Shown here in pieces: positions 31,526 through 50,062 of a stretch of 64,000 nt of DNA. Origin of the DNA: a virus. Location of the stretch: IMG/VR virus record IMGVR_UViG_3300029355_000102; one strand, given 5' to 3'. Each line of letters opens with the position of its first letter. Position 1 is the stretch's first letter. Made by a program: the position numbers and the translations under genes. The notes beneath the pieces are model-generated. The model was not told the DNA's origin, did not search any database, and worked only from the letters and a program-made list of their open reading frames with translations.

Positions 31526-31778
31526 TATTTATTTCTTTAGAGTAGCAATTTCTATCAAGTATCTTAATGCACTGTTTAATTCCAGTATCAAATCCTTCTT
31601 TATAGCCTTTGGTATGCTCACCTAAAACATATATAGTCATTGACAGCCAAAATAGAAGTATGCCAACGGATTTATACCAGCATGGTAAAGATACAGAAAA
31701 GGGTTTTAAGGTGATAGAGAAATCACCGATCCACAGAAGACCGGCAATGAGCATGAGTAAATATAAGACTTTCATCAT
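31500..31778 (-). CDS. small membrane protein
   Basis: 92 aa, two TM helices. Confidence 0.35.
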   Translation of the reverse strand: MMKVLYLLMLIAGLLWIGDFSITLKPFSVSLPCWYKSVGILLFWLSMTIYVLGEHTKGYKEGFDTGIKQCIKILDRNCYSKEINNDETVQNQ

Positions 31779-32267
31779 TTATCATTGTTAAGTTCAACAT
31801 ATTTGCCTTGTAAAGAGCAGTTCCTTAAAATTTCGGCATTTTCCCGGCCAAATGCAATAAGAACACTACCGCAACCGGGGCTGTCCCCACGTGTTCCATC
31901 GGGACGGAAGAATTTTATTCGATTCCTCAAAAACATCATACCGGTTGCTTTCGTGAAGATGATGTCTTGAAACTTATTGCTGTCACACCGGTTAAAAAGT
32001 AGTGCTATACCGTTGCCGTGTTCTGCCAATTTCTCTACAAACTGCCATATAAGCGGTTTGGAGTACGGAGGGTTAAGCCAAATTCGCCCCCCCCCAATTT
32101 TGTATAAGACCATTGTCCTGCTTGTTGTACATGATTTTTGCGGTAGGCCAAAGAGGGTGCATGGGAGCACATGGATCAAGGTCAAATTCACCTAATGCTT
32201 CAATGATTTCTCGTGGTGTGTACCATTCATCGGAAGCGTTTGCAGATCGTTCAAAAGATGTATTCAT
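31775..32267 (-). CDS. phage Dam-type N6-adenine DNA methyltransferase, frameshifted at a G9 tract (32087-32095)
   Basis: N-terminal piece DEWYTPREIIEAL...FDLDPCA (32073-32267) and downstream piece with NPPY motif (31775-32191) join only if the tract is G8 or G11. Confidence 0.7.
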
Positions 32268-32500
32268 GTATTACTTACATTTAGGATTTTACGAATTTCT
32301 ATATGATCGCAATTTTCATCAGCCTTTTTCAGAATATAAGCAATTTCTTCTTCCTTACTCATGTTCTGTGGACGTTTCGTTGCTTCTGCTCTCAATTCAG
32401 AAATAATTTTATCTACTTCGGGATTAGGAGTTTCATATAATTTTTTAAATTCAGCGGCTCTACGTTTAATAAGTCGCTCTGTCTTTTTGTTTAATTTCAT
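32264..32500 (-). CDS. hypothetical protein
   Basis: 78 aa. Confidence 0.3.
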   Translation of the reverse strand: MKLNKKTERLIKRRAAEFKKLYETPNPEVDKIISELRAEATKRPQNMSKEEEIAYILKKADENCDHIEIRKILNVSNT

Positions 32501-32501
32501 C

Positions 32502-33419
32502 TCACAATATTTTAAAGTATTCCTTACATAAAAAACCTTTTCTTGGTGAAAAGTCTTTGAAGTCGCAACTCATGTATATTTCCTTCCTATCAGCCCAATG
32601 TGCCATGTCTTTCTGCCACTGTGGAATAATTTGGTGTGGATTGTTCAGATCACGAAAGGGTTGACAATGTGGAAGAAAACGGCGGCTTTTAGATTTCCAG
32701 TAGTTGACGCGCGCAAACGATTCTTCAAAGTCCATAAGGATGCAATACAAGAAATATTCCCCTTTATATCCATACTTGTCTATTAAAGCGGAAGCACGTT
32801 CAACTTCTGCAATCTGTCCCGGTGTATCGCATCCAAAGCGAATACGTTTAATCCATTTTACTTTTGCAAGTAGCCGAGCGATTTCATCCGTGATTAAACG
32901 AGCATCCAGTCCTTGATTAAAATCCACTTTGATACCCAGTTTGATGATTTTCTCTATTTGCTGCAAGCCATAGTTTGAGGCCAGTATATTATTATCCATA
33001 AGGATAGCTTTCTTCCGTCCGGCTGTTATTTCCTCAATATCCATATAAGGTGAGATTTTTCCTTCTTTTTTAGGAACAACCCACCATTTACACCGATTGG
33101 GACACCCACGTGTCAGAAACCCATAGGACAAATTGGAGTCAATATTGTAGATCGAGTAATCAGGTTGAAGACGATCAACCTCAATTGGAAGAACTTTTTC
33201 AATATCATATCCAGTACCACCTTTTTCTATTTGGTTAGCATTGATATAATAGTTATAGTCGGGTGTGAAAGTGAAAACTTTAGCTGCATATACTTTATCA
33301 TATTTACATAGTGGATTATACCATTCCACTTGATCGCCTCTTGCTTTGTGGTAAGCACTGATCTTCATAAGTGCTAAATTGGGGAAATTGCTATCAACGG
33401 CTAAAATTCCAATATTCAT
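32502..33419 (-). CDS. hypothetical protein (Cys-motif, DUF5131/Gp37-Gp68-like?)
   Basis: 305 aa; TRGCPNRC motif. Confidence 0.3.
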   Translation of the reverse strand: MNIGILAVDSNFPNLALMKISAYHKARGDQVEWYNPLCKYDKVYAAKVFTFTPDYNYYINANQIEKGGTGYDIEKVLPIEVDRLQPDYSIYNIDSNLSYGFLTRGCPNRCKWWVVPKKEGKISPYMDIEEITAGRKKAILMDNNILASNYGLQQIEKIIKLGIKVDFNQGLDARLITDEIARLLAKVKWIKRIRFGCDTPGQIAEVERASALIDKYGYKGEYFLYCILMDFEESFARVNYWKSKSRRFLPHCQPFRDLNNPHQIIPQWQKDMAHWADRKEIYMSCDFKDFSPRKGFLCKEYFKIL

Positions 33420-33814
33420 TATTCTTCAAATTTAGGTTTTGGCATCCATGCTATCGGTTCCCATGACGGAGGTATGCTGCTCATTGAAGAGTAAATTGGG
33501 TTACCTTTGTACGTGTCATAGATATAACCATCCATGCAGAACCATACATTGTTGCTATATGTGCCGTTAAAAATCGCACCATGTTTACATAGAATGATGA
33601 TGTCTTCATTTTCATCCGGCAACTGTCCCTTCACGCTTATCCAAGGTGATTGCTTTGACTGCCAGTCAGCACCTTTTATAAATGCAGATTCTGCAATTTC
33701 ATCATGAGATAAATATGTAAAATCATCAAGTGACGTGTGTGTGCCATAAGTAGTTAATGTTTCGGCACTTGTCATCCTTGCTTCCTTTGCCGCTTCTTCT
33801 ACTGTCTGTTTCAT
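33419..33814 (-). CDS. hypothetical protein
   Basis: 131 aa. Confidence 0.3.
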   Translation of the reverse strand: MKQTVEEAAKEARMTSAETLTTYGTHTSLDDFTYLSHDEIAESAFIKGADWQSKQSPWISVKGQLPDENEDIIILCKHGAIFNGTYSNNVWFCMDGYIYDTYKGNPIYSSMSSIPPSWEPIAWMPKPKFEE

Positions 33815-33816
33815 AT

Positions 33817-34503
33817 CTATTTATCAAATAAATTAGTTTGAACCAACGTTCCTCTCTCTGTTTTTATCTCCCCAAAACATTCCCGGTGAAAACGTTCTTC
33901 TTGTGCTTCAAAGTATTCTTCATCTATTTCAGTTGCATAGAAATCGAATCCAAGTCCATAAGCAGCTATTCTGCTACTTCCTGAACCTAAATGACTATCA
34001 AAAATTTTGTCTCCCTCTTTGGCGTTTTTTCTTAATATTTCAGCATATAATTTCACTGGCTTCTGACAACGATGGATATTTCCACCTCGTTCTCCAATTG
34101 TACACCGGTTTAGAGTTATGATCCGAAGAGCTTTGTCAAAACTACTCCATGCCAATTCTCCGTCAGACATTGTTAGTCCATGTTGCCCCTTATCCCAGAC
34201 GATCCAACCCATTTTAGGAGGCAGATGTTGAGTAAAATAGTTGCCACCGAAAATTATTTGATTCTTACTCACTCTAAATAACTCCTGAAAATATCTTTTG
34301 CCAGGTGGTTTCTTGTCCCAATCCTTGCGTTTATACTGCTTAAAGCCTAAATGCTTCGGCATCCCACCCTTGTGCATTATGTCTATGCCATACTGGGGAT
34401 CGACTATCGCTGAGTCCTTACTTTCATTTTTTTTTGATACATTTTCCCAGTTTAAGTATAAATACACATTCGTTATCCGGTGCTCCCCAATTGGTGTTAC
34501 CAA
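33817..34503 (-). CDS. beta-class N6A/N4C DNA methyltransferase
   Basis: DPQY (motif IV) upstream of FDSHLGSGSS (motif I), order typical of beta-class amino-MTases. Confidence 0.6.
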   Translation of the reverse strand: MVTPIGEHRITNVYLYLNWENVSKKNESKDSAIVDPQYGIDIMHKGGMPKHLGFKQYKRKDWDKKPPGKRYFQELFRVSKNQIIFGGNYFTQHLPPKMGWIVWDKGQHGLTMSDGELAWSSFDKALRIITLNRCTIGERGGNIHRCQKPVKLYAEILRKNAKEGDKIFDSHLGSGSSRIAAYGLGFDFYATEIDEEYFEAQEERFHRECFGEIKTERGTLVQTNLFDK

Positions 34504-34801
34504 CTCCGATGGTTATAGATTCAAGTTCAAAAAGCATTGTCCGTTTGGTGTAGCCAAAACGGAAGCAAACATGAGTGTATTCTTTGGGGTGAAAGCCGTT
34601 TCCACGTGTAATACAAGAAAAACAAATAGCTTTCTTACAATAGAAACCAGTCTTTTCATAGGAATTGCGACCTCCACATTTTGCTAATCTTCCGATCCAG
34701 TATTTCTTGATCTCTCTGTATTCTTCTTTCTTATTTCCGGATTCGATCATTTCATACCATTTTGCTTTTAATGGCAGGTCAAGGATTTTCATATTAACCA
34801 T
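34424..34801 (-). CDS. ASCH-domain protein
   Basis: MKILDLPLKAKWYEMIESGNKKEEYR N-terminus typical of ASCH. Confidence 0.4.
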   Translation of the reverse strand: MVNMKILDLPLKAKWYEMIESGNKKEEYREIKKYWIGRLAKCGGRNSYEKTGFYCKKAICFSCITRGNGFHPKEYTHVCFRFGYTKRTMLFELESITIGVGNTNWGAPDNECVFILKLGKCIKKK

Positions 34802-35035
34802 AGTCTAAAAGAGTTGCGGATTCTGTTTGTCGTGAAGGATTTTTTGAACACGTTCAATTTCTTCATCTACTTCACGCTCAATTTGTTTACTTATTCGTAA
34901 ATCTATCTGTCTCTTATTTTTGAAATATTCTTTTTGGCAACGGCGCATTTCCACCACTTTGTCGAAAAATTCTTTTGGAGTCATAGATTTAAAAGGTATG
35001 GAAAAGGCCGCTTTGATGCGGCCTCCCCAGTGTGA

Positions 35036-35620
35036 TTACTTTTTTCCAATCAGAAAGTCTTTCCACAATTCTTTGAATTGTTCTCCAAAGTAAATTGCGA
35101 TTTCACTTGATTTTACAGCAAGGCGAGAGCCGATACCCGCATACGAGTACGACCAATCGTTATTCGAGTACGCACAAGCGAGGCCGCAATACGCACCGTG
35201 ATACGCATTACCGCCCCAAAGAACCAGCCGATTACGATCCTCTTCGTCCATTTCATCAATTTCTTTTTGATTATAAAGATAAAACCACGGCGTATAACGG
35301 TATTCATCTTTAGTAAATCGTGGAAAATCAGGATCGTTGTTTAACGCACGGGCAATAGTGCATAGTTTGATGTAGGCGAGGTGTGCAATATCAGCCACTT
35401 CTTCTTTGTGTCCGTCTTCATCTTCAACAAGTAGGCGAACAATGGGTTTTACACCTATTGCTTCACAAGCATCTTCGTAGGTTTTAATATTGTGATAATC
35501 TGTATAATCCGGCTTTTGCTTTCCGAATAGGGCTGTTAGAATACTAATTGCTTTAGGACAGTCGTTTGCTTCACTAAAAGCGGCTGTTACCTTTTCTTGT
35601 GTGATTTTAAGTTCTGACAT
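35036..35620 (-). CDS. DGR target protein 2 (194 aa) with C-terminal variable region
   Basis: C-terminus LWGGNAYHGAYCGLACAYSNNDWSYSYAGIGSRLA encoded by a TR copy differing only at TR adenines. Confidence 0.75.
   Translation of the reverse strand: MSELKITQEKVTAAFSEANDCPKAISILTALFGKQKPDYTDYHNIKTYEDACEAIGVKPIVRLLVEDEDGHKEEVADIAHLAYIKLCTIARALNNDPDFPRFTKDEYRYTPWFYLYNQKEIDEMDEEDRNRLVLWGGNAYHGAYCGLACAYSNNDWSYSYAGIGSRLAVKSSEIAIYFGEQFKELWKDFLIGKK
35121..35228 (-). repeat. DGR variable repeat 2 (VR2), opposite strand to TR
   Basis: reverse complement aligns over 108 nt with TR; 11 mismatches, all at TR A positions; identical ggctctcgcc 3' end. Confidence 0.85.
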
Positions 35621-35628
35621 AATGTAAA

Positions 35629-36381
35629 TTATTTATTGTTAATACTATATCCGAATAATGCAAAATCTCCCCGGCACGGATCATCCGGGAAAATTGTTTT
35701 CATGTAATTGGTTACTTGTTGAACCATTTTCCAGTCCTCTGTTTTGCGTGTTGTTATCCCAAGCTGATGTGCCATTTTTGCAACATGCGCATCCAATGGT
35801 ATGTATAATTCTGTTGGATGAATAATAGTCCAAATACCTAAATCCACCGGCGATTTTCGTACTACCCACCGTAGAAACAGACAAATACGCTTGCATGGAG
35901 AATCACGCTCCAATTTTGGAATACCTTTTACGCCACCAAAATCTGTTTGTATTTCACGGATAACATTGTTGTAACCCTCATAAAATACTTCCAAATCATC
36001 CCATTCCTGATATATGTTGTACAACCGCTGGCAAATGCAGAAGAAGTCATGGTAGGTGAACATACGGTAGAAGGTATTTGTATTTTCTTTGTATTGTTCC
36101 CATACTTTGTTCATAATGAAGTCATAAGGAGAATTACCCATTAGATTATCCAAAATTTCTGCTTGCTGCATTATCAGTTTGCGATTCCCGAAAGCTATCC
36201 ATGAAGTAAGAAAGGCACTGATTTCTATGTCCTTTTTATCACTGTACTTATGTGGGAAGAATATAGGATCATCTTTTATAAAATCAGGTGTTTCAAATTG
36301 TTTTGCCCAGTCAAGTAGTTTGTTTCTTAGTTCTTCCATAATATTCTTCTTTCCATTTTTTGAAAGCGGCTTCTTTATCAT
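35629..36381 (-). CDS. DUF2400/TIGR02757-family protein
   Basis: 250 aa; FIKDDPIFFPHKY...EISAFLTSWIAFGNR signature. Confidence 0.4.
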   Translation of the reverse strand: MIKKPLSKNGKKNIMEELRNKLLDWAKQFETPDFIKDDPIFFPHKYSDKKDIEISAFLTSWIAFGNRKLIMQQAEILDNLMGNSPYDFIMNKVWEQYKENTNTFYRMFTYHDFFCICQRLYNIYQEWDDLEVFYEGYNNVIREIQTDFGGVKGIPKLERDSPCKRICLFLRWVVRKSPVDLGIWTIIHPTELYIPLDAHVAKMAHQLGITTRKTEDWKMVQQVTNYMKTIFPDDPCRGDFALFGYSINNK

Positions 36382-36994
36382 TTGATTTCATCCTTTGTAT
36401 GAATGATTGATGGGATTCCAATAATTCTTTGGCCTCTTCATCTCCATTTTCCGATCTTTCAGTTAGATGTTTGATATATTCTCCGTAGAACATTCCAGTG
36501 CTGTTATTATTTTGTTCATGGGCTTCATTAATTGAAAGAGAAGAAACAATTTCATCACGCTGTACATCGTATTCATTTAACCAGCCGAGAATGATATTAC
36601 CGTCCAGTCTATCGTAAATCTTACCGGAAGCCATAGCATTACGGAAACACAATTTGATTTCCTCCAATTTGAGATAATAGAATCTGTCTATTATTAGATC
36701 AGCGGTAAGTGCCACTTGAACATCATTCATCGTTTTTCCGACATTGAAAAAAGACACAAGCTCGTTAATCGCAATTACCAGTATGGCTCTTGCGCCAGCC
36801 AATGTGATTTCTTTTCTTATAACGGAGAGTGGTAGGTTAGGAGTGTTGAGAACAGCTTCTTTAATCGAACTTACGTGCAATCCCTTGTAATACTCCGCTT
36901 GCAAGGTCAGCAAGTCTTTCAACGCTTTCTTTTCGGTTGCCGGGAGATTGCTGTTGACTTGAATTAAGTTGTTTCCCATACTTGTTAAAATCAT
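36311..36994 (-). CDS. hypothetical protein
   Basis: 227 aa. Confidence 0.3.
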   Translation of the reverse strand: MILTSMGNNLIQVNSNLPATEKKALKDLLTLQAEYYKGLHVSSIKEAVLNTPNLPLSVIRKEITLAGARAILVIAINELVSFFNVGKTMNDVQVALTADLIIDRFYYLKLEEIKLCFRNAMASGKIYDRLDGNIILGWLNEYDVQRDEIVSSLSINEAHEQNNNSTGMFYGEYIKHLTERSENGDEEAKELLESHQSFIQRMKSNDKEAAFKKWKEEYYGRTKKQTT

Positions 36995-37280
36995 TATTAG
37001 ACCATCTGACTAAACGTTTGGAAACTTCAAATGTACGTTCCTTCTCAAAGCGCATTTTCCGTCCTCCGCATTCAGTCCAATACTCGAAAAAGTCCTTCAA
37101 CATATCATCAGGATATTTCCCTCTGTACATGAGGACTTCACTTCTGAATTTGTCTTTCCTTGCAGAAAGAGAATCTTTATTCATATTCATCTTATGGCCT
37201 AATCCGGCCATGAATGCTTGTTCCAATGTTGCATCAGGATGATCCCGACACCACTGGGTTGCTAATTCTTCTGATTTCAT
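36861..37280 (-). CDS. hypothetical protein
   Basis: 139 aa. Confidence 0.3.
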   Translation of the reverse strand: MKSEELATQWCRDHPDATLEQAFMAGLGHKMNMNKDSLSARKDKFRSEVLMYRGKYPDDMLKDFFEYWTECGGRKMRFEKERTFEVSKRLVRWSNNDFNKYGKQLNSSQQQSPGNRKESVERLADLASGVLQGIARKFD

Positions 37281-37285
37281 TTGAT

Positions 37286-38390
37286 TTATAATTTAGATAA
37301 CCAATATTTCCATACTCGTGAGGCTACATGCGCCATCATAACGGGTGGTACACTCATTCCACAGATATAATGTGGGGATTGGTTGCAAAAGTTATAGTCG
37401 ATGGGGAAAGTAGAGACTTTACAGATTTCAGATGTACTTAGATATAAAGGCTGTGTAAAGTGTATCAAATCATCATGCTTGGAAGTTATCGTATTGCAGA
37501 TGCGATCTTCAAGTGTATATTTCTTTGAGAAGAATAACTCTTTACCGTATAGCCGCATACATGTATCAGACATGTCTTTATCAGTAATTTCTCTATGTTC
37601 CCAAACATATCGAATTTTTGTACCATTTTTAATTTCTTTCCCCTTAAAGTCTGTTATTTCTTTCATCAAAATGGGTATTTCATTGAACTTCATACAAATA
37701 TGTGGCTCAACATTGAAGAGGTCTGAAACTTTTAGAAAATGAACTCCCAAATCATGCCTGATACATATAAAGAATACACGTTCTCTTTTTTGAGGTACTC
37801 CCATTTTAGAAGCATCAAGAAGAAAATGCTGACAATAATAACCAGCTTCCTCAAAGTCTTTGTATATACGTCTGACATAATCAATCGCATTCCCTAAAAG
37901 AAGTCCTTTCACATTTTCAGCAATAACGACTTTAGGTTTTAAGCGTTTGGCAAGTGCAATAAAATCAAAAAAGAGCGTGTCTAAAACTTGTGTCTTTTGA
38001 CCTTCCTTGAATTTCTTTTCTTTACCCCACGCATCTTCACGTAATCCCGACATGCTAAATGTACTGCAAGGTGGTGATCCGTCCAATATATCTAAATTGT
38101 ACAATTCTTCGGGAAGATAATTCCTTTTCACTAAATCACGAATATCTTCCAAATAACTATACTGGGGATGATGGTTTGTTTCATAGCATTTCATCATTCG
38201 TGGATCAATCTCATTACAGCCAATAACATCGTAACCGGCTATTTTGTAACCCATAGTAGAGCCACCGCCACATGCAAAACAAGAAAATACCTTTCCTTTA
38301 TCTTTAGTAAAAACAGCATCTTCTAAAGACCAGCGATAAGGATAGAGATGTTGGGGGGGGGGGTAATTACATCTTTCATCATTCCACCTC
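37286..38390 (-). CDS. C5-cytosine DNA methyltransferase (Dcm-like), frameshifted at a G11 tract (38353-38363)
   Basis: PPCSTFS (motif IV), ENV (motif VI); motif I FACGGGS lies upstream of the annotated Met and is in frame; natural ATGATG start is reached only if the tract is G12 or G9. Confidence 0.7.
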
Positions 38391-38421
38391 CCATAATTCA
38401 GCTACTCTTTTGAATTCTTCA

Positions 38422-38838
38422 TCAGCTGGAACCGGGCAATCTTTGATCCATTTCATATCTTTTACTTTCCATAAGTTCATCTTTGTAGTCCAACAAAAAA
38501 TTATTGGCCTCCAATAAACTATGAACATCATTAACAGAATGTGGAGTGTAAACAACTCCATCGAAGTATCTGATATAATTGGGGAGCATATCAGCCAGTG
38601 CCGTATATAGAAATAATTTTCCTTTATTGCCATAGGCCAATTTTTGAACGGTTTTGATACTTTCAGCCAAATTTGCCAGTTTTTCAGGAAACAAAAGTGG
38701 TTCTCCACCAGTTATCATGATCTCTTTGTAATTAAAGTGCTCAACAACTGGTAATTTTGAAAAATCCCATGAGTTGTTGCAACACATAGGACATTTGTTC
38801 GGACATTTGGTTGTAACCAATAGACGTAACTTTTCCAT
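38422..38838 (-). CDS. small radical-SAM protein (NrdG/QueE-like)
   Basis: CPNKCPMC (CxxxCxxC) and GGEPLL SAM-binding motif in 138 aa. Confidence 0.5.
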   Translation of the reverse strand: MEKLRLLVTTKCPNKCPMCCNNSWDFSKLPVVEHFNYKEIMITGGEPLLFPEKLANLAESIKTVQKLAYGNKGKLFLYTALADMLPNYIRYFDGVVYTPHSVNDVHSLLEANNFLLDYKDELMESKRYEMDQRLPGSS

Positions 38839-38842
38839 TTAT

Positions 38843-39118
38843 AATGATATTGTTTGGGTGTATTTCAATTCTCCGGTATATCCACGTGCTTTCAATTCTG
38901 CGATAAGTTCCCGTGGAGAAAATTTTGCCAATTCAGGATTGGAATATATTTTCTTCAAATTCCCCCCCCCGGAGTTTTCTTACGGTTTCTGGCATAAACA
39001 TTACCGCACTCTTTACAATATGTCTGCAATCCATCTTCGGTTGAAGCATTTTTCCAAAACTCACTGACCGGAAGTTCCCGGCTACATTTGCTACATTTTT
39101 TTAATTTTTCCATTATTC
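38843..39118 (-). CDS. zinc-ribbon protein, frame broken at a G9 tract (38962-38970)
   Basis: MEKLKKCSKCSRELPVSEFW...YCKECGNVY; continuous 92-aa ORF only if tract is G10; with G9 stops after 52 aa. Confidence 0.4.
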
Positions 39119-39568
39119 CTTTTCTTTAATTCTACCATATTCACATATTAGTAAGGCATCCGAAGTTGCCAATGTAACTTTTGCATACGGGAACAGCTGT
39201 TGGGCTTTCTTCTTTAAGATGTTTTTCCATTCTGTCTTACCCAATTTGTCTGTATTTCGTAATCCTATAGTTTTTTGCCAAGTTTGTGGAGATACTGTTA
39301 CTGTCGGAATCCCACAAGCTATCAATCCCATAGTCAGCTGTCCGTAACCTTCTCCAAAAACAAAAGAGGCAGAAGCACTTTGTCCGGTCATGCCATTCAC
39401 TCGTTCCAAATAACAAACGCTATTTTCTTTGTATATGGAGAGAAAATCTAATAAGTCTTTGGGAGTTGGTGGCATTTTGATACACTCCAATAATTTGTTA
39501 TTCTCGGTGTCGTACACTACAATTCCACCGTTTTTGCCAACATCTATACCTATGATCCTTCGTTTCAT
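39113..39568 (-). CDS. RuvC-like Holliday junction resolvase
   Basis: IIGIDVGKNGGIVVYD N-terminus and TLATSDALLIC acidic motif. Confidence 0.65.
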   Translation of the reverse strand: MKRRIIGIDVGKNGGIVVYDTENNKLLECIKMPPTPKDLLDFLSIYKENSVCYLERVNGMTGQSASASFVFGEGYGQLTMGLIACGIPTVTVSPQTWQKTIGLRNTDKLGKTEWKNILKKKAQQLFPYAKVTLATSDALLICEYGRIKEKE

Positions 39569-39571
39569 AAA

Positions 39572-39740
39572 TTATACTTTTTTGTTTATAAATCTTTTGA
39601 GCTTAATTACATCTTTCTTTCCAAGCCTTAGTGCTTCACTGGTCTTGATGTCAGAAGGTGAAGCTTTACAATTCTCGGTTATCCTTTCAAAATGTCGGAT
39701 AAAGGATTTTAGGAAATAGTCGGGGATTTCAACTTTCATA
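39572..39740 (-). CDS. hypothetical small protein
   Basis: 55 aa from Met at 39740; longer ORF-track start would overlap the tRNA-like RNA. Confidence 0.3.
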
Positions 39741-39754
39741 ATGATTGATTTATG

Positions 39755-39917
39755 TGGATAAGCCCGGACTCGAACCGGGAACTGTTGCAATCAGGATTTT
39801 CGTTTCTGCTTCCGTTTGTACGTATGTCAAGTGTTAATAGCATATTACCTGACTCGTGATGCTATTCGTGCATTTTTACCACAGAAACTAAGCGTCTTCC
39901 GATTTCGCCACTTATCC
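39755..39917 (-). ncRNA. tRNA-like structured RNA (about 163 nt) with canonical acceptor, D and T arms but a roughly 90-nt insertion in the anticodon region
   Basis: 5' GGATAAG pairs perfectly with 3' CTTATCC; U8; D arm with A14,G18G19,A21; T arm CCCGG-TTCGAGT-CCGGG; discriminator A; internal 7-8 bp hairpins. Confidence 0.4.
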
Positions 39918-40104
39918 GTTTGCCTCTACAATAGAGGCATTTTACATGAACAAAAAGACTCTTTGTAGTATCTACCGCCGTGGAGCGTATGCAGCGTACT
40001 CGACTCGACTTGCAAAGAGAAGAAAAAAGGTGAGGCATGATAGTTCCCGGATAGGCGGTCAAGCCACACCGGGAGAAGCTGATTATTAATCGGGTTGATA
40101 ATTA

Positions 40105-40314
40105 TTATTTTAGGAATTTAGCAAAAGTCTTGATTGAGCCTTCATTATTACTTTTTAAAGAGGCCAATTCTGTATTTTTAGAAGTTAGTGTAGAAATAAC
40201 AGATTTATTCTTTTCGATTTCTGCATCAATATCACTATTAAGTGTTTCCAAATCGGCTTTTGCTTGTGCAAATTGAGACAATATCGTATCTCTTCTTTGT
40301 TGAAATGTCAGCAT
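40105..40314 (-). CDS. hypothetical coiled-coil protein
   Basis: 69 aa. Confidence 0.3.
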   Translation of the reverse strand: MLTFQQRRDTILSQFAQAKADLETLNSDIDAEIEKNKSVISTLTSKNTELASLKSNNEGSIKTFAKFLK

Positions 40315-40315
40315 A

Positions 40316-41125
40316 TTATTTTGTCATTTTTAAAAATTCAGGAGCAATGCCATATAGAGGTGTCTTCCCGTCCCACTTGTCTATAAATTGTTTATATAAA
40401 ATCTCACGGGTGAGTCCACGGGACGCAATTAAAGCTTGTTCTGTTTTTAGTTGCTCCAGTTCGTTTTGCTTCTTTTGTTCTTCAATCTTCTGATCAAGTA
40501 CCGAAATATTAGTGTTTACCTCGTTACGGCTATCTATTTTATCGCGGACAGCTCTTGAAAATTCCAATTGTGCGGAGAAGGTCAACAACTGCAATCCCCG
40601 TTTCTCAAATTCTTTATCAACGATCTGTTCCAGTCTCTTTTCAAATACCAATGAACCACCGTCAGCCATCAGACTGTCTGTTTTATGTTTGCGACTTTCT
40701 TCTTTGATAAGATCATATATACGTGGCTCCAAAATATTATCTTCTAATGATTGCATAAAGCCATCTTTTCCCGATGGGGTGTCAGCCTTATCAATATGCT
40801 TGTTATCAAATACAATATCAATAGCCCTGTTTTTCATTACTTTATAAGAGTAAGTTGGCCGGGCTGTAAACTCTGTATTGTCGGCTGCTTTTAGTGTGAC
40901 TGGATCAGAAAATTCTCCACGCTGATCGAATAGCGGAACTTGAAAAAGCTCTGTGCCTAATTCCCATGTAGATACCTTACCGGCAACGATTTTAAAATCT
41001 TCTTTCCCTTGTTTGCCGTAGTTCTCCATAAGGACACCGGCATAATTGGGAGCAACTCTTTCGCATGAAGCAAACAAAACAACGGCAAATAGTGCCACAA
41101 TCAAAAAATCAATCTTTCTTTTCAT
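40316..41125 (-). CDS. SPFH/band-7 (prohibitin-like) lipoprotein
   Basis: lipobox LFASC, then SPFH-like core and C-terminal coiled coil. Confidence 0.55.
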   Translation of the reverse strand: MKRKIDFLIVALFAVVLFASCERVAPNYAGVLMENYGKQGKEDFKIVAGKVSTWELGTELFQVPLFDQRGEFSDPVTLKAADNTEFTARPTYSYKVMKNRAIDIVFDNKHIDKADTPSGKDGFMQSLEDNILEPRIYDLIKEESRKHKTDSLMADGGSLVFEKRLEQIVDKEFEKRGLQLLTFSAQLEFSRAVRDKIDSRNEVNTNISVLDQKIEEQKKQNELEQLKTEQALIASRGLTREILYKQFIDKWDGKTPLYGIAPEFLKMTK

Positions 41126-41285
41126 TTTCTACTTTTTTTAATGATATTATAAACTATAAATGCTACTGTCAGCATAATTATTGAAATTCCCAACCACGCA
41201 TTTATGTGATTGAATACGCGGTTGCCAATGAAGAAAGCCGATACGACAAGTACCGGCTTCCAGTATTTCTTTACAGTCTTCATTG

Positions 41286-42029
41286 TTATTGTTCGATAAT
41301 GGCAATATCCGGTGCCAATTTACGGATCAACAATAATTGCTCGTCAATGGCCTTGTTGCGTTCTTCTTCCACTATCACTTCTGCACCAGGGGAGCAAAGG
41401 GATAATCGAATGTTACGCCCATCCACATCTGCAATGATTTCCACTTCAATTTCTTCTGCCGGGCGACCTTTGAAAATCGGAACAATAAGATTGAATGAGG
41501 CCGGAAGATTGGAGTTGACAACTTGGCTGTAATTGTCAGTGCGACTACCGTTGTCTTGTCGGGAGTTTTCCACTTTTGAGTCAATGCTGGCTTTGAAGTT
41601 CTTCAAGACTGTTACCAGTTCCATGTTGTATTGTGCATCCTTGAAGAAGGCACGATTCATTTTGAAGAACTTTGAAAGCTGCACCGGTTCCCATGTCTTG
41701 CTTGTGTTAATACCAAATTCAAGAAACTTGGGATAGTATTTCAACTCACCTCTTACAGTAGCTTTATTCCTACTGTCAGTTTCATTGGTGACAAGTTTAA
41801 GTGTCATTTTCTCCCGATCAACAAGAATATAGCAACGTTTCTGATTGATCTGCTCTTTTTCAGAGATTCTTTTCAAGAGAAATTCATGAACACTTCCAAT
41901 TGTTCCGGCTAATTCTACCTTATCAGGCTCCAGTACCGGTAACTCATTTTCTTCGTGAAGTTCAATAACTCTAAGGGTTGCTTCGGTCATACCCGGAGCA
42001 AAGTTCACTTGCATCTTTTCGTTTCCCAT
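41286..42029 (-). CDS. hypothetical protein (DUF2303/YfdQ-like?)
   Basis: 247 aa. Confidence 0.3.
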   Translation of the reverse strand: MGNEKMQVNFAPGMTEATLRVIELHEENELPVLEPDKVELAGTIGSVHEFLLKRISEKEQINQKRCYILVDREKMTLKLVTNETDSRNKATVRGELKYYPKFLEFGINTSKTWEPVQLSKFFKMNRAFFKDAQYNMELVTVLKNFKASIDSKVENSRQDNGSRTDNYSQVVNSNLPASFNLIVPIFKGRPAEEIEVEIIADVDGRNIRLSLCSPGAEVIVEEERNKAIDEQLLLIRKLAPDIAIIEQ

Positions 42030-42035
42030 GCTGTT

Positions 42036-42314
42036 CTACAAATTTTTAGTTCTGTTTTTAAATGATTTGGCTGGTTTGAAGTGTGGAGTATAATGCTCCG
42101 CTATGACAATAGTCTCGTTTTTGTGTATGTTACGAGCAACTTTTCGTTTATAGTGTTTGGGTGACAGTGTACCAAAACCTCTGATATAAAGAGTTCTTCC
42201 ATTAGCTACTGCATCCACGGTTTCCTTCAATGCTGCTTCTATAACTGTTCGGACTTCGCAAATAGCAATACCGGTTGATTCGGCTACTTGCTTGATAAGT
42301 TCTTCTTTTCTCAT
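42036..42314 (-). CDS. HU/IHF-family DNA-binding protein
   Basis: ELIKQVAESTGI...GFGTL...KNETIVIAEHYTPHFKPAKSFK matches HU fold signature. Confidence 0.7.
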   Translation of the reverse strand: MRKEELIKQVAESTGIAICEVRTVIEAALKETVDAVANGRTLYIRGFGTLSPKHYKRKVARNIHKNETIVIAEHYTPHFKPAKSFKNRTKNL

Positions 42315-42317
42315 GGC

Positions 42318-42746
42318 TTATCCCTCCGTACCAGTAGATTCAATGTCCTCGAAGACCGTTTTTTGCATCTCTTGTGCCTCCATCGGACGTTCTTTAACCA
42401 AATCGCCATTACCATTGTAATATCCGGTGGTACGGGTGCTACGATCCATAAACTTAAAGCATTCATCCGTAATTTCCTCATAACCACGTTTTATATCGGT
42501 AAGCAACGTTTTTTTACGTTCCTTTTTAGGTTTCAGTTTGTCCTTGTATGCTTGCATGAAAGCTTTCTTTTCTTCTTCCAGTGCGGCCATGTCAAGGTCA
42601 ATATTTGCCAACTCCGTTTTCCGTTCACCCATTTCTTCCTCGCTGAAAGGAGAAGTATAGGTAATTCTTTCAACTGCTGCGCAATTGTCTTCCAACATTT
42701 GTCTGCGAAGCAATGGATTCTTATCTTTAAATAGTTCTTTATCCAT
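42318..42746 (-). CDS. hypothetical protein
   Basis: 142 aa. Confidence 0.3.
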   Translation of the reverse strand: MDKELFKDKNPLLRRQMLEDNCAAVERITYTSPFSEEEMGERKTELANIDLDMAALEEEKKAFMQAYKDKLKPKKERKKTLLTDIKRGYEEITDECFKFMDRSTRTTGYYNGNGDLVKERPMEAQEMQKTVFEDIESTGTEG

Positions 42747-42747
42747 A

Positions 42748-43050
42748 TCATAAAGGTTTTAAGCCATATCGGGCAGAACCGACAAATGGCTGTGGGTTAG
42801 TCCTTATGTTTGCTTTGTGTATATCATCTGTACGATGATTGAATAATCGGGGTAATCCCGTTATTTTGTCATATACAACCAGTTCAGACGATACATAACA
42901 AATAAAGCCTTTCAGTCGCTCTTTCAACCATGCGTTCTGATAGGCTCTGCGTTCACGATATTCTTGGTAGCTCATTCCCTTTGGGCGAGCTGTGAGAAGG
43001 GGAGTGTAATTTCTCGCCCCCCCCGATTTAGATTTACTCTTTCCCATCAA
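42748..43050 (-). CDS. hypothetical protein containing in-frame G8 tract (43017-43024)
   Basis: 100 aa, tract encodes SGGA. Confidence 0.35.
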   Translation of the reverse strand: MMGKSKSKSGGARNYTPLLTARPKGMSYQEYRERRAYQNAWLKERLKGFICYVSSELVVYDKITGLPRLFNHRTDDIHKANIRTNPQPFVGSARYGLKPL

Positions 43051-43648
43051 TCAAATTTTTATATTGTTCTTCTGAAACGAACTTGTCGCAGTTCCCATAC
43101 CAAGTACCATCATTTATCTTGTATGGCCTGACTGTTTTATCCATTTCATTCATAACACCGACTACCGCATTTTCTTTGCTATTATCATCCCATACAATAA
43201 CAACATCGCCGACAGTCGGGATATATTCAGGCTGTAACTTCTCAAAATTGAAGGAGTAATGTTTTTCTTCCTTCATGGCGGCAAGCATCTTTGCCTTTTC
43301 CTCTTCCGTAGCTTTACGGAATCCCTTCATGCCTCCGATACCAGCTTCGGGTGTGAGTCTTACAAAAACTCTGTCACCTTCATCATTGGAAGGAACATAG
43401 GCGACAAGGCCGAAAGGTACTTTAATTGCCGGTAAAAAAGAGAGTGGCCTTTCTTCTCTAATTTCAGAGAGAATCATCATGCTGCCCCCTCCGCGATTCG
43501 GATTGATAATTACGTCACCGGGGATGAATGTCTCACCCTCAAATTCAAATTTACCCCCCCCCGTAACTTTTTGAGTAGGTTGCATACTTTCTTCTTTCAC
43601 GATTTTTACCATGTGTCCTTCGGGCACTTCAACTGTTACTGTTCTCAT
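43034..43648 (-). CDS. hypothetical protein containing in-frame G10 tract (43553-43562)
   Basis: 204 aa, tract encodes TGGGK. Confidence 0.4.
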   Translation of the reverse strand: MRTVTVEVPEGHMVKIVKEESMQPTQKVTGGGKFEFEGETFIPGDVIINPNRGGGSMMILSEIREERPLSFLPAIKVPFGLVAYVPSNDEGDRVFVRLTPEAGIGGMKGFRKATEEEKAKMLAAMKEEKHYSFNFEKLQPEYIPTVGDVVIVWDDNSKENAVVGVMNEMDKTVRPYKINDGTWYGNCDKFVSEEQYKNLIDGKE

Positions 43649-43869: not shown

Positions 43870-44777
43870 TACTTGACTTCTTCTGCGTATGGAGTATCGT
43901 CTTCCTCAAAATCGTCCGGTTTCTGACCTTGTGCCTTTTTCCAGTCTTCAAACATTTCATCATCCAACTGGCTCTCTGTTTCAAGAACTTTAATCATGGA
44001 ATCTGAAATGCCGGTTTTGGGCAGGAATTTGAAAGCCCAGTTCACGATTGTTTTTCGAGCCATTTCTTCAAAGTCTGTGTCCCACGGGGATTGCTTGCCT
44101 TTCTTGACAGCCTCACTACGACTTTTTATTTCTTCAATACGTGCTTTGGGCATTGCATCGAATTTTACAACACCGGAAGTCAAGACTGCAAAATAGTAGC
44201 CTCCAAGAAGATCACCACGTTCTCCGAATACATTGGGTTTGTGGATGATAGTGCCACCGGTACCTTTTGTCATGCTGAACTCGTCATTAGCATAAACCAA
44301 ATCAGAATAAATATCTTTTACAACACCGGTGCGGATCAAAATATCAACTTTACCCATGTATGAAGCTTGGAACTTCACTTTGCCTTTGTACGGTACAAGA
44401 TACCCCAACCTTAGTTCAGGATTGAGCGTCAGACCGGTAAGAGAAACGTTTTTGATTGCTTCGACAAGATGATCGGGATATTGCCGGGCACAGTCAATCA
44501 AATAAGGATTATTCAACATTGCCTGCATAGCGAAATTGACTTCACGGGCAAATTGCTGTTCTGTGCCACCAGCTGCTATAAATGCCTTTTTAGGGGAGAT
44601 AAAACAGCTTTCCAATCCTTTCAGTTGTACTGGAAAGGCTGGTGGGGCAGAAGGAACGGGCGGTTGTGGTGTGGAAGGTGTTGGGGAGACCGGTTCTGTT
44701 TTTGTTGGTGAAGGAGCATTGTGTTGTTCCATTCCCAAGTTCCCTTGTTGGGGGGATTGATTCTCTGTTTTACTCAT
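43869..44777 (-). CDS. RecT-family single-strand annealing recombinase
   Basis: 302 aa; conserved RecT core (LNPELRLGYLVPYKGK...YMGKVDIL). Confidence 0.65.
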   Translation of the reverse strand: MSKTENQSPQQGNLGMEQHNAPSPTKTEPVSPTPSTPQPPVPSAPPAFPVQLKGLESCFISPKKAFIAAGGTEQQFAREVNFAMQAMLNNPYLIDCARQYPDHLVEAIKNVSLTGLTLNPELRLGYLVPYKGKVKFQASYMGKVDILIRTGVVKDIYSDLVYANDEFSMTKGTGGTIIHKPNVFGERGDLLGGYYFAVLTSGVVKFDAMPKARIEEIKSRSEAVKKGKQSPWDTDFEEMARKTIVNWAFKFLPKTGISDSMIKVLETESQLDDEMFEDWKKAQGQKPDDFEEDDTPYAEEVK

Positions 44778-50027: not shown

Positions 50028-50062
50028 CAAAGAGAGGGATAGAGGCCCCCCCTATCCCCTAC
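50028..50062. terminator. hairpin between convergent genes
   Basis: gggatag...ctatccc stem with C7-containing loop. Confidence 0.4.

Follow-up and report, generated by a model that had tools for sequence, protein, structure and literature searches.

Results

A cluster of long G/C tracts in the early operon of a LoVEphage-type phage

The IMG/VR virus record IMGVR_UViG_3300029355_000102 comprises 64 kb of phage DNA with 39.3% G+C; this whole stretch is referred to here as the window, and tract coordinates are those of its + strand. A scan for G/C homopolymers of ≥ 8 nucleotides (nt) returned five runs, T1 to T5, all located between 32.0 and 43.6 kb and all within a single leftward early operon (Table 1). 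T1 and T2 lie in genes for a Dam-like N6-adenine and a Dcm-like C5-cytosine DNA methyltransferase respectively, T3 lies in a zinc-ribbon gene, and T4 and T5 lie in two open reading frames (ORFs) of 99 and 204 amino acids (aa). The sole other G/C run of ≥ 7 nt is a C7 at position 50046, and the scan found no tract in the late genes of the window. The pattern GGGGGGGG was matched 11 times on both strands, compared with 0.59 expected matches, a count reached in 0/100 dinucleotide-preserving shuffles; runs of G8 or longer were enriched ∼19-fold over the shuffles. GGG makes up 17% of the Gly codons of this genome, and CCC 14% of its Pro codons. The long G/C tracts of the window exceed chance. tRNA and Rfam scans of the window gave no match relevant to them.

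The initial annotation of this DNA had listed five poly-G tracts on the coding strand. All five places proved right, but one base and one length did not: the run at 38353-38363 (T2), given as G11, is poly-C on the coding strand since the + strand carries G, and the run given as G10 at 43553-43562 (T5) is 9 nt long (43554-43562), base 43553 being an A. Both tracts near 43 kb are in frame, as had been stated, the second of them as G9; they encode GG (T4) and GGG (T5).

Between positions 31000 and 44000, the window is 97–99% identical over 88–95% of the length to six GenBank phage records. Four of these are Bacteroides phage LoVEphage (MW660583, OY731433, OY731444 and OY725593), and the remaining two are Bacteroides phage BI-TP1, for which the GenBank record gives B. 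intestinalis as the source host, and Phocaeicola phage PV4-TP1. On the grounds of this identity, we assign the window to a LoVEphage-type temperate phage of Bacteroidaceae. LoVEphage is temperate and very common in the gut (PMC8525569, PMC12629997); induction has released it from B. thetaiotaomicron, P. dorei and P. vulgatus, and in one survey it was present in ∼8% of 1,241 viromes and was the most often detected induced gut phage (PMC12629997). The tract-bearing genes lie on one strand, in an early operon that begins after the repressor/integrase region and also contains genes for exonuclease VIII, RecT, HU, a Holliday-junction resolvase, radical-SAM proteins, a PAPS-reductase-like protein and RtcB. 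This module is strongly mosaic between the GenBank relatives. Genomes of this type are annotated with a primase, a clamp-like protein and SSB, and without a DNA polymerase catalytic subunit.

Tract length and the products of the five genes

Tract-bearing loci were collected from the six GenBank relatives; searches of IMG/VR, GTDB genomes and ENA/JGI metagenomes with the Dcm protein as query contributed 140 more, and further loci came from searches with the Dam, 204-aa and zinc-ribbon proteins. Tract lengths were read from consensus assemblies throughout, and a gene was called ON or OFF by translating it from its start codon in each non-redundant locus. Counts use exact-containment de-duplication, and some IMG/VR and ENA contigs may be the same assembly. 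De-duplication by identical 500-nt context was rejected, as it drops independent samples of the same haplotype and flattens the distributions.

T1 encodes W-G-G immediately before the NPPY motif of the Dam-like protein. As the initial annotation had proposed, the G9 of the window splits this gene between the WYTPREII/DLDPCA part and NPPY, leaving a 64-aa N-terminal ORF separated from the NPPY-bearing remainder, and a G8 run gives an intact product of 163 aa. The G8-corrected protein matched Pfam PF05869 (E 3.4e-15; 56.6 bits against a cut-off of 28.1) and PHROG 111 (E 4e-41), and contains the motif WLNPPYS. The GenBank relatives annotate the gene variously, as a single intact coding sequence or in two pieces. 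T1 ranged from 6 to 10 nt in relatives, and Dam was ON in 11/27 non-redundant loci. Eight IMG/VR loci carry a locked-ON allele, TGG GGA GGG, in which the run is interrupted; Dam homologues of 65–79% identity have TGG TTT GGA at this position, without a run.

T2 forms codons 11–13 of the Dcm-like gene and was confirmed to sit downstream of the ATGATG start and upstream of motif I (FACGGGS); direct reading found no in-frame start codon between the tract and motif I. At the window length of 11 the gene is out of frame, and the remaining 322-aa ORF lacks motif I. Lengths of 9 or 12 restore the 364/368-aa protein, which agrees with the initial annotation in all but the base, here C. The C9-corrected protein (368 aa) matched PF00145 over profile positions 2–322 of 324 (E 5.4e-46; 157.9 bits against a cut-off of 22) and shows motifs I (FACGGGS), IV (SPPCSTFS) and VI (AENVKG). 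Among 91 non-redundant loci, T2 varied between 6 and 12 nt and Dcm was ON in 35; the C8 allele occurred in 28 loci versus 37 for C9. The tract is retained in a sub-lineage whose Dcm is only ∼80% identical. More distant Dcm homologues (52–59% identity, on other phage contigs) have a G8/G9 run within motif I itself, where TGT GGG GGG GGC encodes CGGG (L027 7486-7493, L028 48-55 and L042 7486-7494); these occurred as in-frame copies only. LoVEphage encodes the glycines of this motif as GGC GGT GGC, and the runs of the distant homologues may have arisen independently within this gene family.

T3 lies in a T-P-G-G-G linker that joins the zinc ribbon to the C-terminal domain of its protein. The N-terminal CxxC...CxxC part matched the zinc-ribbon parts of the PHROG endonuclease VII, HNH and Lar-like families (E 1e-8 to 1e-11). 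The predicted truncation was borne out: G9 yields 52 aa and G10 the full length of 91 aa, while G8 and G11 yield 59 and 60 aa. T3 lengths ranged from 7 to 11, its flanks occur in four variants, and the full-length protein was encoded in 18/74 non-redundant loci. Full-length homologues exist at 71% and 48% identity, and those at 71% have a P-S-T-N linker without a run.

The two remaining genes are ON in the window. T4 constitutes codons 8–10 of the 99-aa ORF, a hypothetical protein in relatives for which Pfam, PHROG and NCBIfam searches returned zero matches. The ORF is ON at G8 and G11; T4 lengths were 7–12, and 30/48 non-redundant loci were ON. T5 constitutes codons 29–32 of the 204-aa ORF (T-G-G-G), which is ON at G9 and G6; T5 lengths were 6–11, with 28/46 non-redundant loci ON. 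The 204-aa ORF has 87 homologues, all of ≥ 70% identity and all in LoVE-type phages, and many of the homologue clusters are 5′-shortened gene calls that match OFF alleles. Homologues at ∼78% identity lack the whole QPTQKVTGGG segment; T5 therefore lies in a dispensable linker. Pfam gave only sub-threshold matches to this ORF, searches of PHROGs, NCBIfam and PDB sequences yielded nothing usable, and an AlphaFold2 model built on a 14-sequence alignment had a mean pLDDT (predicted local distance difference test score) of 38.6.

In the window, Dam (G9) and Dcm (C11) are OFF and the zinc-ribbon protein is truncated (G9), while the 99-aa (G8) and 204-aa (G9) ORFs are ON. With Dam and Dcm OFF, and because a third methyltransferase gene is 5′-truncated, the window copy as it stands appears to encode no intact DNA methyltransferase.

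Tract lengths vary far more than other homopolymers

The tracts are not peculiar to the window. They occur at the same five positions, with lengths of 6–12 nt, in every LoVE-type locus collected, comprising the six GenBank phages and ∼100 metagenome, virome or metagenome-assembled genome contigs. The lengths in the six GenBank relatives were 6/9/7/9/8/8 for T1, 8/8/8/10/9/9 for T2, 10/10/10/9/11/11 for T3, 8/9/8/11/8/8 for T4 and 10/10/9/8/9/9 for T5. For each tract, the in-frame and both out-of-frame length classes coexist among relatives. A non-modal length was found in 35–57% of genomes at the five tracts, compared with 0–3% at most A/T6 runs, 2% at G6 and 8–32% at A/T7–9 control runs.

We also scored only those assembly pairs in which the 300 nt on either side of a run are identical. 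Such pairs were discordant at the five tracts in 278/514 cases (54%), whereas controls were discordant in 0/1968 (A/T6), 3/100 (G6) and 38/271 (14%; A/T7–9) cases. Mutability at the runs therefore far exceeds that of the surrounding DNA and depends on run length and base. The G6 control in the RecT-like gene of the same operon had a length of 6 in 42/43 relatives. A run of seven T residues at 41133-41139 was unusually variable for its length: relatives had 6, 7, 8 or 9, most often 6 or 8, and discordance stood at 54% for pairs that share identical 60-nt flanks and at 19% for pairs that share 300-nt flanks.

Most OFF alleles were otherwise intact: a tract change of 1–2 nt alone restored ≥ 90% of the full length in 144/163 (88%). 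Among 37 genomes, Dcm, T4 and T5 showed each of the eight possible ON/OFF combinations, which, at the level of sequence, is consistent with independent switching. In SPAdes contigs at 22–484× coverage, 10/23 gene states (43%) were OFF. We also looked up the exact predicted products in a collection of 15 billion proteins. The Dam products of G6, G7, G8, G9 and G10, the 368- and 322-aa Dcm products and the 52-, 60- and 91-aa zinc-ribbon products were each present on between 903 and at least 1000 contigs; among these are Mb-size chromosomes, the largest of 7.6 Mb, as well as named isolates of Bacteroides and Phocaeicola.

Four contigs from metagenomes or viromes stop in, or ≤ 10 nt from, a G/C tract (L024 at its end, L078 and L095 at their starts, L111 at its end). 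We did not use these ends as evidence for heterogeneity within samples, since the cases are few and ambiguous and could also stem from a loss of read quality at the run.

Further tracts and a third methyltransferase in relatives

Two extra hypervariable tracts occur in relatives, in modules missing from the window (e.g. L001 5438-5447 and L005 4873-4881), and bring the total of the family to seven. A third methyltransferase of relatives, of the N6/N4 type and 222 aa when complete, has its own C7–10 tract (T7), at which C8 is ON (3 loci) and the modal C9 is OFF (12 loci). The PAPS-reductase-like gene of relatives has a G7–12 run right behind its ATG. Here, lengths of 8 and 10 are commoner than 9, and an upstream start codon is available in each of the three frames. 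We considered this bimodal distribution as proof of selection for two ON frames, but dropped the argument as all frames have a start.

The window allele of the third methyltransferase reads KKPPGK at the T7 site, without a run. The gene has lost its 5′ end, retains the motifs IVDPQYG and FDSHLGSGSS, and abuts an ASCH-like ORF at an A9 run. This A9 was examined as a sixth switch that would fuse the ASCH-like ORF to the methyltransferase, and was rejected because the downstream DNA of the relatives differs.

Table 1. Tracts, tract-bearing genes and other features of the window.
Feature	Position	Strand	Remarks
T1	32087-32095	(-)	C9 on + strand, G9 on coding strand; Dam-like gene
T2	38353-38363	(-)	G11 on + strand, C11 on coding strand; Dcm-like gene
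T3	38962-38970	(-)	C9 on + strand, G9 on coding strand; zinc-ribbon gene
T4	43017-43024	(-)	C8 on + strand, G8 on coding strand; 99-aa ORF
T5	43554-43562	(-)	C9 on + strand, G9 on coding strand; 204-aa ORF
Dam-like N6-adenine DNA methyltransferase gene	31775..32267	(-)	OFF; 64-aa N-terminal ORF at 32073-32267
Dcm-like C5-cytosine DNA methyltransferase gene	37286..38394	(-)	OFF; 322-aa ORF at 37286-38254
Zinc-ribbon gene	38841..39113	(-)	52 aa in window (38955-39113); full length 91 aa
99-aa ORF	42748..43047	(-)	ON; hypothetical protein in relatives
204-aa ORF	43034..43648	(-)	ON
G6 control run in RecT-like gene	44750..44755	(-)	G on + strand
Run of seven T residues	41133-41139		T on + strand
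Third methyltransferase gene	33817-34503	(-)	5′ end lost
ASCH-like ORF	34424-34801	(-)	
A9 run	34427-34435		
Radical-SAM/HxsC-like gene	38379-38838	(-)	directly upstream of Dcm
RtcB-type RNA ligase gene	30048-31313	(-)	
Marginal Rfam tRNA match	39755-39917	(-)	163 nt

Other features of the genome

The radical-SAM/HxsC-like gene directly upstream of Dcm has a 77-nt deletion relative to BI-TP1, the sole sequence compared. The deletion is flanked by two direct-repeat copies of TTATGGAAAGTAAA and shifts the frame, leaving an ORF of 138 aa as opposed to 178 aa.

One marginal Rfam match to tRNA was found in the window (29.5 bits, gathering score 29); ARAGORN made no call there, and MW660583 has a two-piece tRNA at the equivalent place. 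An RtcB-type RNA ligase gene lies in the same operon, and the two together hint at an intron-containing or split tRNA. In OY731433, barrnap annotates a 5S rRNA inside the early operon (L002 4140-4245), on a segment that is missing from the window; Rfam found no 5S rRNA in the window, and the annotation in OY731433 is probably spurious.

Genomes of this type also carry a diversity-generating retroelement, with a reverse transcriptase adjoining an Mtd-like tail protein. Homology to BI-TP1 gp11–gp12 places it at approximately 18.6–22.3 kb of the window. Diversity in the phage would thus come from two separate sources, the retroelement for the tail and the tracts for the early genes.

Discussion

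Probable phase-variable early genes in a temperate phage

We consider the five tracts to be simple-sequence contingency loci of a LoVEphage-type phage, a reading to which we assign a probability of roughly three in four. Slipped-strand contingency loci with phase-variable methyltransferases had already been suggested by the initial annotation, and the conservation of the tracts, their length polymorphism and the existence of both ON and OFF alleles support this view. All five are slippable repeats (∼7–8 units or more) inside ORFs, are polymorphic between genomes with identical flanks far above background, toggle the frame of ORFs that are otherwise intact, and are kept against base composition and codon bias. 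The runs are uninterrupted in nearly all relatives, across sub-lineages with ∼80% Dcm identity. Since Dam, zinc-ribbon and 204-aa homologues outside the LoVE clade have no run, the tracts are, as judged from these comparisons, derived features, situated at 5′ ends or in linkers where 3-nt changes do no harm. The sequences thus provide evidence that the runs themselves are under selection.

We envisage that slipped-strand mispairing during DNA replication would add or remove one base per 8–11-nt run. Replication is probably performed by the host replisome, both as prophage and in lytic growth, because the phage has no annotated DNA polymerase catalytic subunit. As each run lies inside or at the 5′ end of an ORF, its length modulo 3 would set whether the full protein is made. 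The genes switched in this way would encode the Dam-like (m6A) and Dcm-like (m5C) enzymes, the C-terminal domain of the zinc-ribbon protein and the 99- and 204-aa proteins, both small and of unknown function; in relatives, the third methyltransferase and the PAPS-reductase-like gene would be switched too. With tracts switching independently, a phage population would be a mix of ON/OFF combinations. We infer from the alleles that such switching is reversible and proceeds at a high rate inside one population, and that its most likely benefit would be epigenetic bet-hedging or anti-restriction. Methylated progeny would escape classical restriction-modification (R-M) and unmethylated progeny would escape methylation-dependent restriction. 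This would be of advantage to a phage whose lysogens include several species of Bacteroides and Phocaeicola.

Taken further, the 5–7 independent tracts might form a combinatorial epigenetic switchboard that toggles three methyltransferases plus other early genes. We put this forward tentatively, with the odds somewhat against it. If true, each induction of a lysogen population would release virions with many methylation patterns, and the switchboard together with the tail-fibre retroelement could let one phage species persist in several Bacteroides and Phocaeicola hosts with different restriction systems.

Alternative explanations

Several of our observations weigh against phase variation, and some are better accommodated by other explanations. 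If the true lengths were always in frame and the deviations arose in sequencing or assembly, through Illumina G-runs, PCR or long-read miscalls, one would expect the modal length to be in frame, as it is at T1, T2, T4 and T5, and OFF calls to be more frequent at low coverage, as they are (22/33 below 5× versus 10/23 at ≥ 20×). Because of this excess at low coverage, some of the length calls are probably errors or unresolved heterogeneity. The reference LoVEphage, moreover, derives from WTA2-amplified viromes (PMC8525569), four contigs terminate in or beside a tract, and the 5–7 Mb contigs that carry exact products may come from long-read assemblies prone to homopolymer miscalls. Artefact as the general explanation nevertheless seems highly improbable to us. 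The high-coverage contigs still have 43% of their gene states OFF, the C8 allele of Dcm is almost as common as C9, and the mode of the third methyltransferase tract is an OFF length. A/T7–9 runs in the same assemblies are ∼4 times less variable and A/T6 runs are invariant; the deviations go in both directions, by up to 3 nt; and cultured induced phages differ among themselves in tract length. Conserved runs of 8–11 nt are, in any case, real regardless of any length call. Decoding at the RNA level, by which polymerase slippage or ribosomal frameshifting would restore the frame in a fraction of transcripts and the DNA length would set the level of expression instead of an ON or OFF state, strikes us as equally improbable as the main explanation, although transcriptional slippage may act as an added layer. 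Long homopolymers are known sites of RNA polymerase slippage, but mostly A/T ones; the RNA:DNA hybrids of G/C runs are stable, and such runs are classically less prone to slippage than A/T runs. The PAPS-reductase tract, with a start in every frame, is suggestive of modulation and, as all three frames have an upstream start codon, is by its sequence not a simple ON/OFF switch. A programmed recoding site, however, is normally fixed out of frame, and no such fixed, conserved out-of-frame arrangement was found here: in-frame alleles are common and the lengths in the DNA vary freely.

The tracts could also be hypermutable without being adaptive, as mutational hot spots tolerated in accessory genes that the phage can do without, the OFF alleles being steps of decay during long prophage residence. 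The methyltransferases are OFF in most genomes, ∼12% of the OFF alleles have a second lesion (mostly in low-coverage or divergent contigs), so that some copies may simply be decaying, and the module is highly mosaic among relatives, with a 5′-truncated third methyltransferase and a 77-nt deletion in the radical-SAM-like gene of the window. The early operon is presumably repressed in lysogens, and tract drift in a repressed prophage could be neutral and give high OFF fractions without selection. We still consider this explanation unlikely. It would have to account for a single operon with seven G/C runs of ≥ 8 nt, in a genome that has 39% GC and a codon usage that disfavours them, and for runs that stay unbroken across sub-lineages although interruptions such as GGA and KKPPGK do arise. 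The 88% of OFF alleles that are otherwise intact indicate purifying selection and frequent return to ON, and the tracts sit in linkers and 5′ ends that tolerate 3-nt changes. We therefore favour contingency loci.

Implications

If the methyltransferases do switch by slippage, this would explain how a temperate gut phage copes with the very diverse R-M repertoires of its hosts. Methyltransferase genes that public records show as split or truncated should then not be taken for errors or pseudogenes, and the methyltransferase content of prophages in Bacteroides epigenome surveys could not be read as activity without the tract length. The finding gains weight from the clarity of the signal and from a phage that is so prevalent and lysogenises several major Bacteroidaceae species.

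Comparison with known systems

Invertases are considered the main source of phase variation in Bacteroidales, and switching methyltransferases would add simple-sequence contingency loci to this ecosystem. Examples of site-specific inversion in Bacteroides include invertible promoters and the type I R-M hsdS shufflon of B. fragilis (PMC7641763). They share with the loci proposed here the theme of stochastic and reversible variation that, in gut Bacteroidales, concerns restriction, modification and the interaction with phages, but they are recombinase-mediated, whereas the tracts would change by replication slippage, with no inverted-repeat switch involved. The initial annotation had called the tracts unexpected for Bacteroides phages, and this fits the literature that we searched: neither the LoVEphage description nor the 2025 isolation paper yielded a report of tracts in LoVEphage or any Bacteroides phage, and full-text searches of surveys of Bacteroides methyltransferases and phase variation found no description of them. 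The mechanism, and contingency loci of phages as such, are already known; for their occurrence in LoVEphage we found no report, and it is apparently new to the literature.

Bacterial phasevarions are governed by phase-variable Mod/Hsd methyltransferases, as in Haemophilus, Neisseria, Helicobacter and Moraxella. As we propose for the phage, repeat length within a methyltransferase ORF gives ON and OFF states and alternative methylomes, and such control by a simple-sequence repeat is seen here in Dam, in Dcm and in the third methyltransferase of relatives. However, phasevarion enzymes belong to chromosomal type III/I R-M systems, usually have tetra- or pentanucleotide repeats and regulate host genes, whereas the predicted Dam- and Dcm-like enzymes of the LoVEphage type are orphans with mononucleotide runs. 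Their genes are part of a phage early operon, next to radical-SAM, RtcB, resolvase and hypothetical genes, and no Res, HsdR or adjacent endonuclease is annotated in the six GenBank records. Because the methyltransferases are orphan phage enzymes outside type I/III systems, the loci lack one defining feature of bacterial phasevarions. Should any of the tract genes be expressed from the prophage, the resulting phase-variable methylation of the host chromosome would amount to a phage-delivered phasevarion in a gut commensal.

Hypermutable polyG tracts have been described in Campylobacter phages (Fletchervirus; Sorensen et al., 2021, Cell Rep 35:109214, as cited in PMC12823448). In the account given there, long G runs in ORFs shift the frame according to their length and create subpopulations, a form of bet-hedging against host resistance, much as proposed here. 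According to the same account, those tracts lie in receptor-binding and structural genes of lytic phages, and the host itself depends on polyG phase variation; the tracts of the window, by contrast, lie in early genes of a temperate phage, DNA methyltransferase genes among them. In the LoVEphage type, receptor diversification appears to be handled by the separate retroelement.

The agt gene (α-glucosyltransferase) of phage T2 contains a polyA contingency locus, and other homopolymers of this kind occur in T-even phages (Gomez, Barrick and Waters, 2025, preprint, PMC12633550). At agt, as we propose for the LoVEphage type, homopolymer slippage turns a DNA-modification gene off and on again; a trade-off between restriction of modified and of unmodified DNA operates there (PMC12633550), and we propose that the LoVEphage loci resemble it in this respect. 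The T2 runs are A6–A9 in an AT-rich lytic phage with its own polymerase, with mutant frequencies of ∼1e-4 to 1e-3 (PMC12633550), whereas the LoVEphage type has G/C8–11 runs maintained against codon bias, in several modification genes, and its assemblies are OFF as often as ON. We regard the T2 agt locus as the closest functional precedent for the LoVEphage tracts, and the polyG tracts of Campylobacter phages as the closest structural one.

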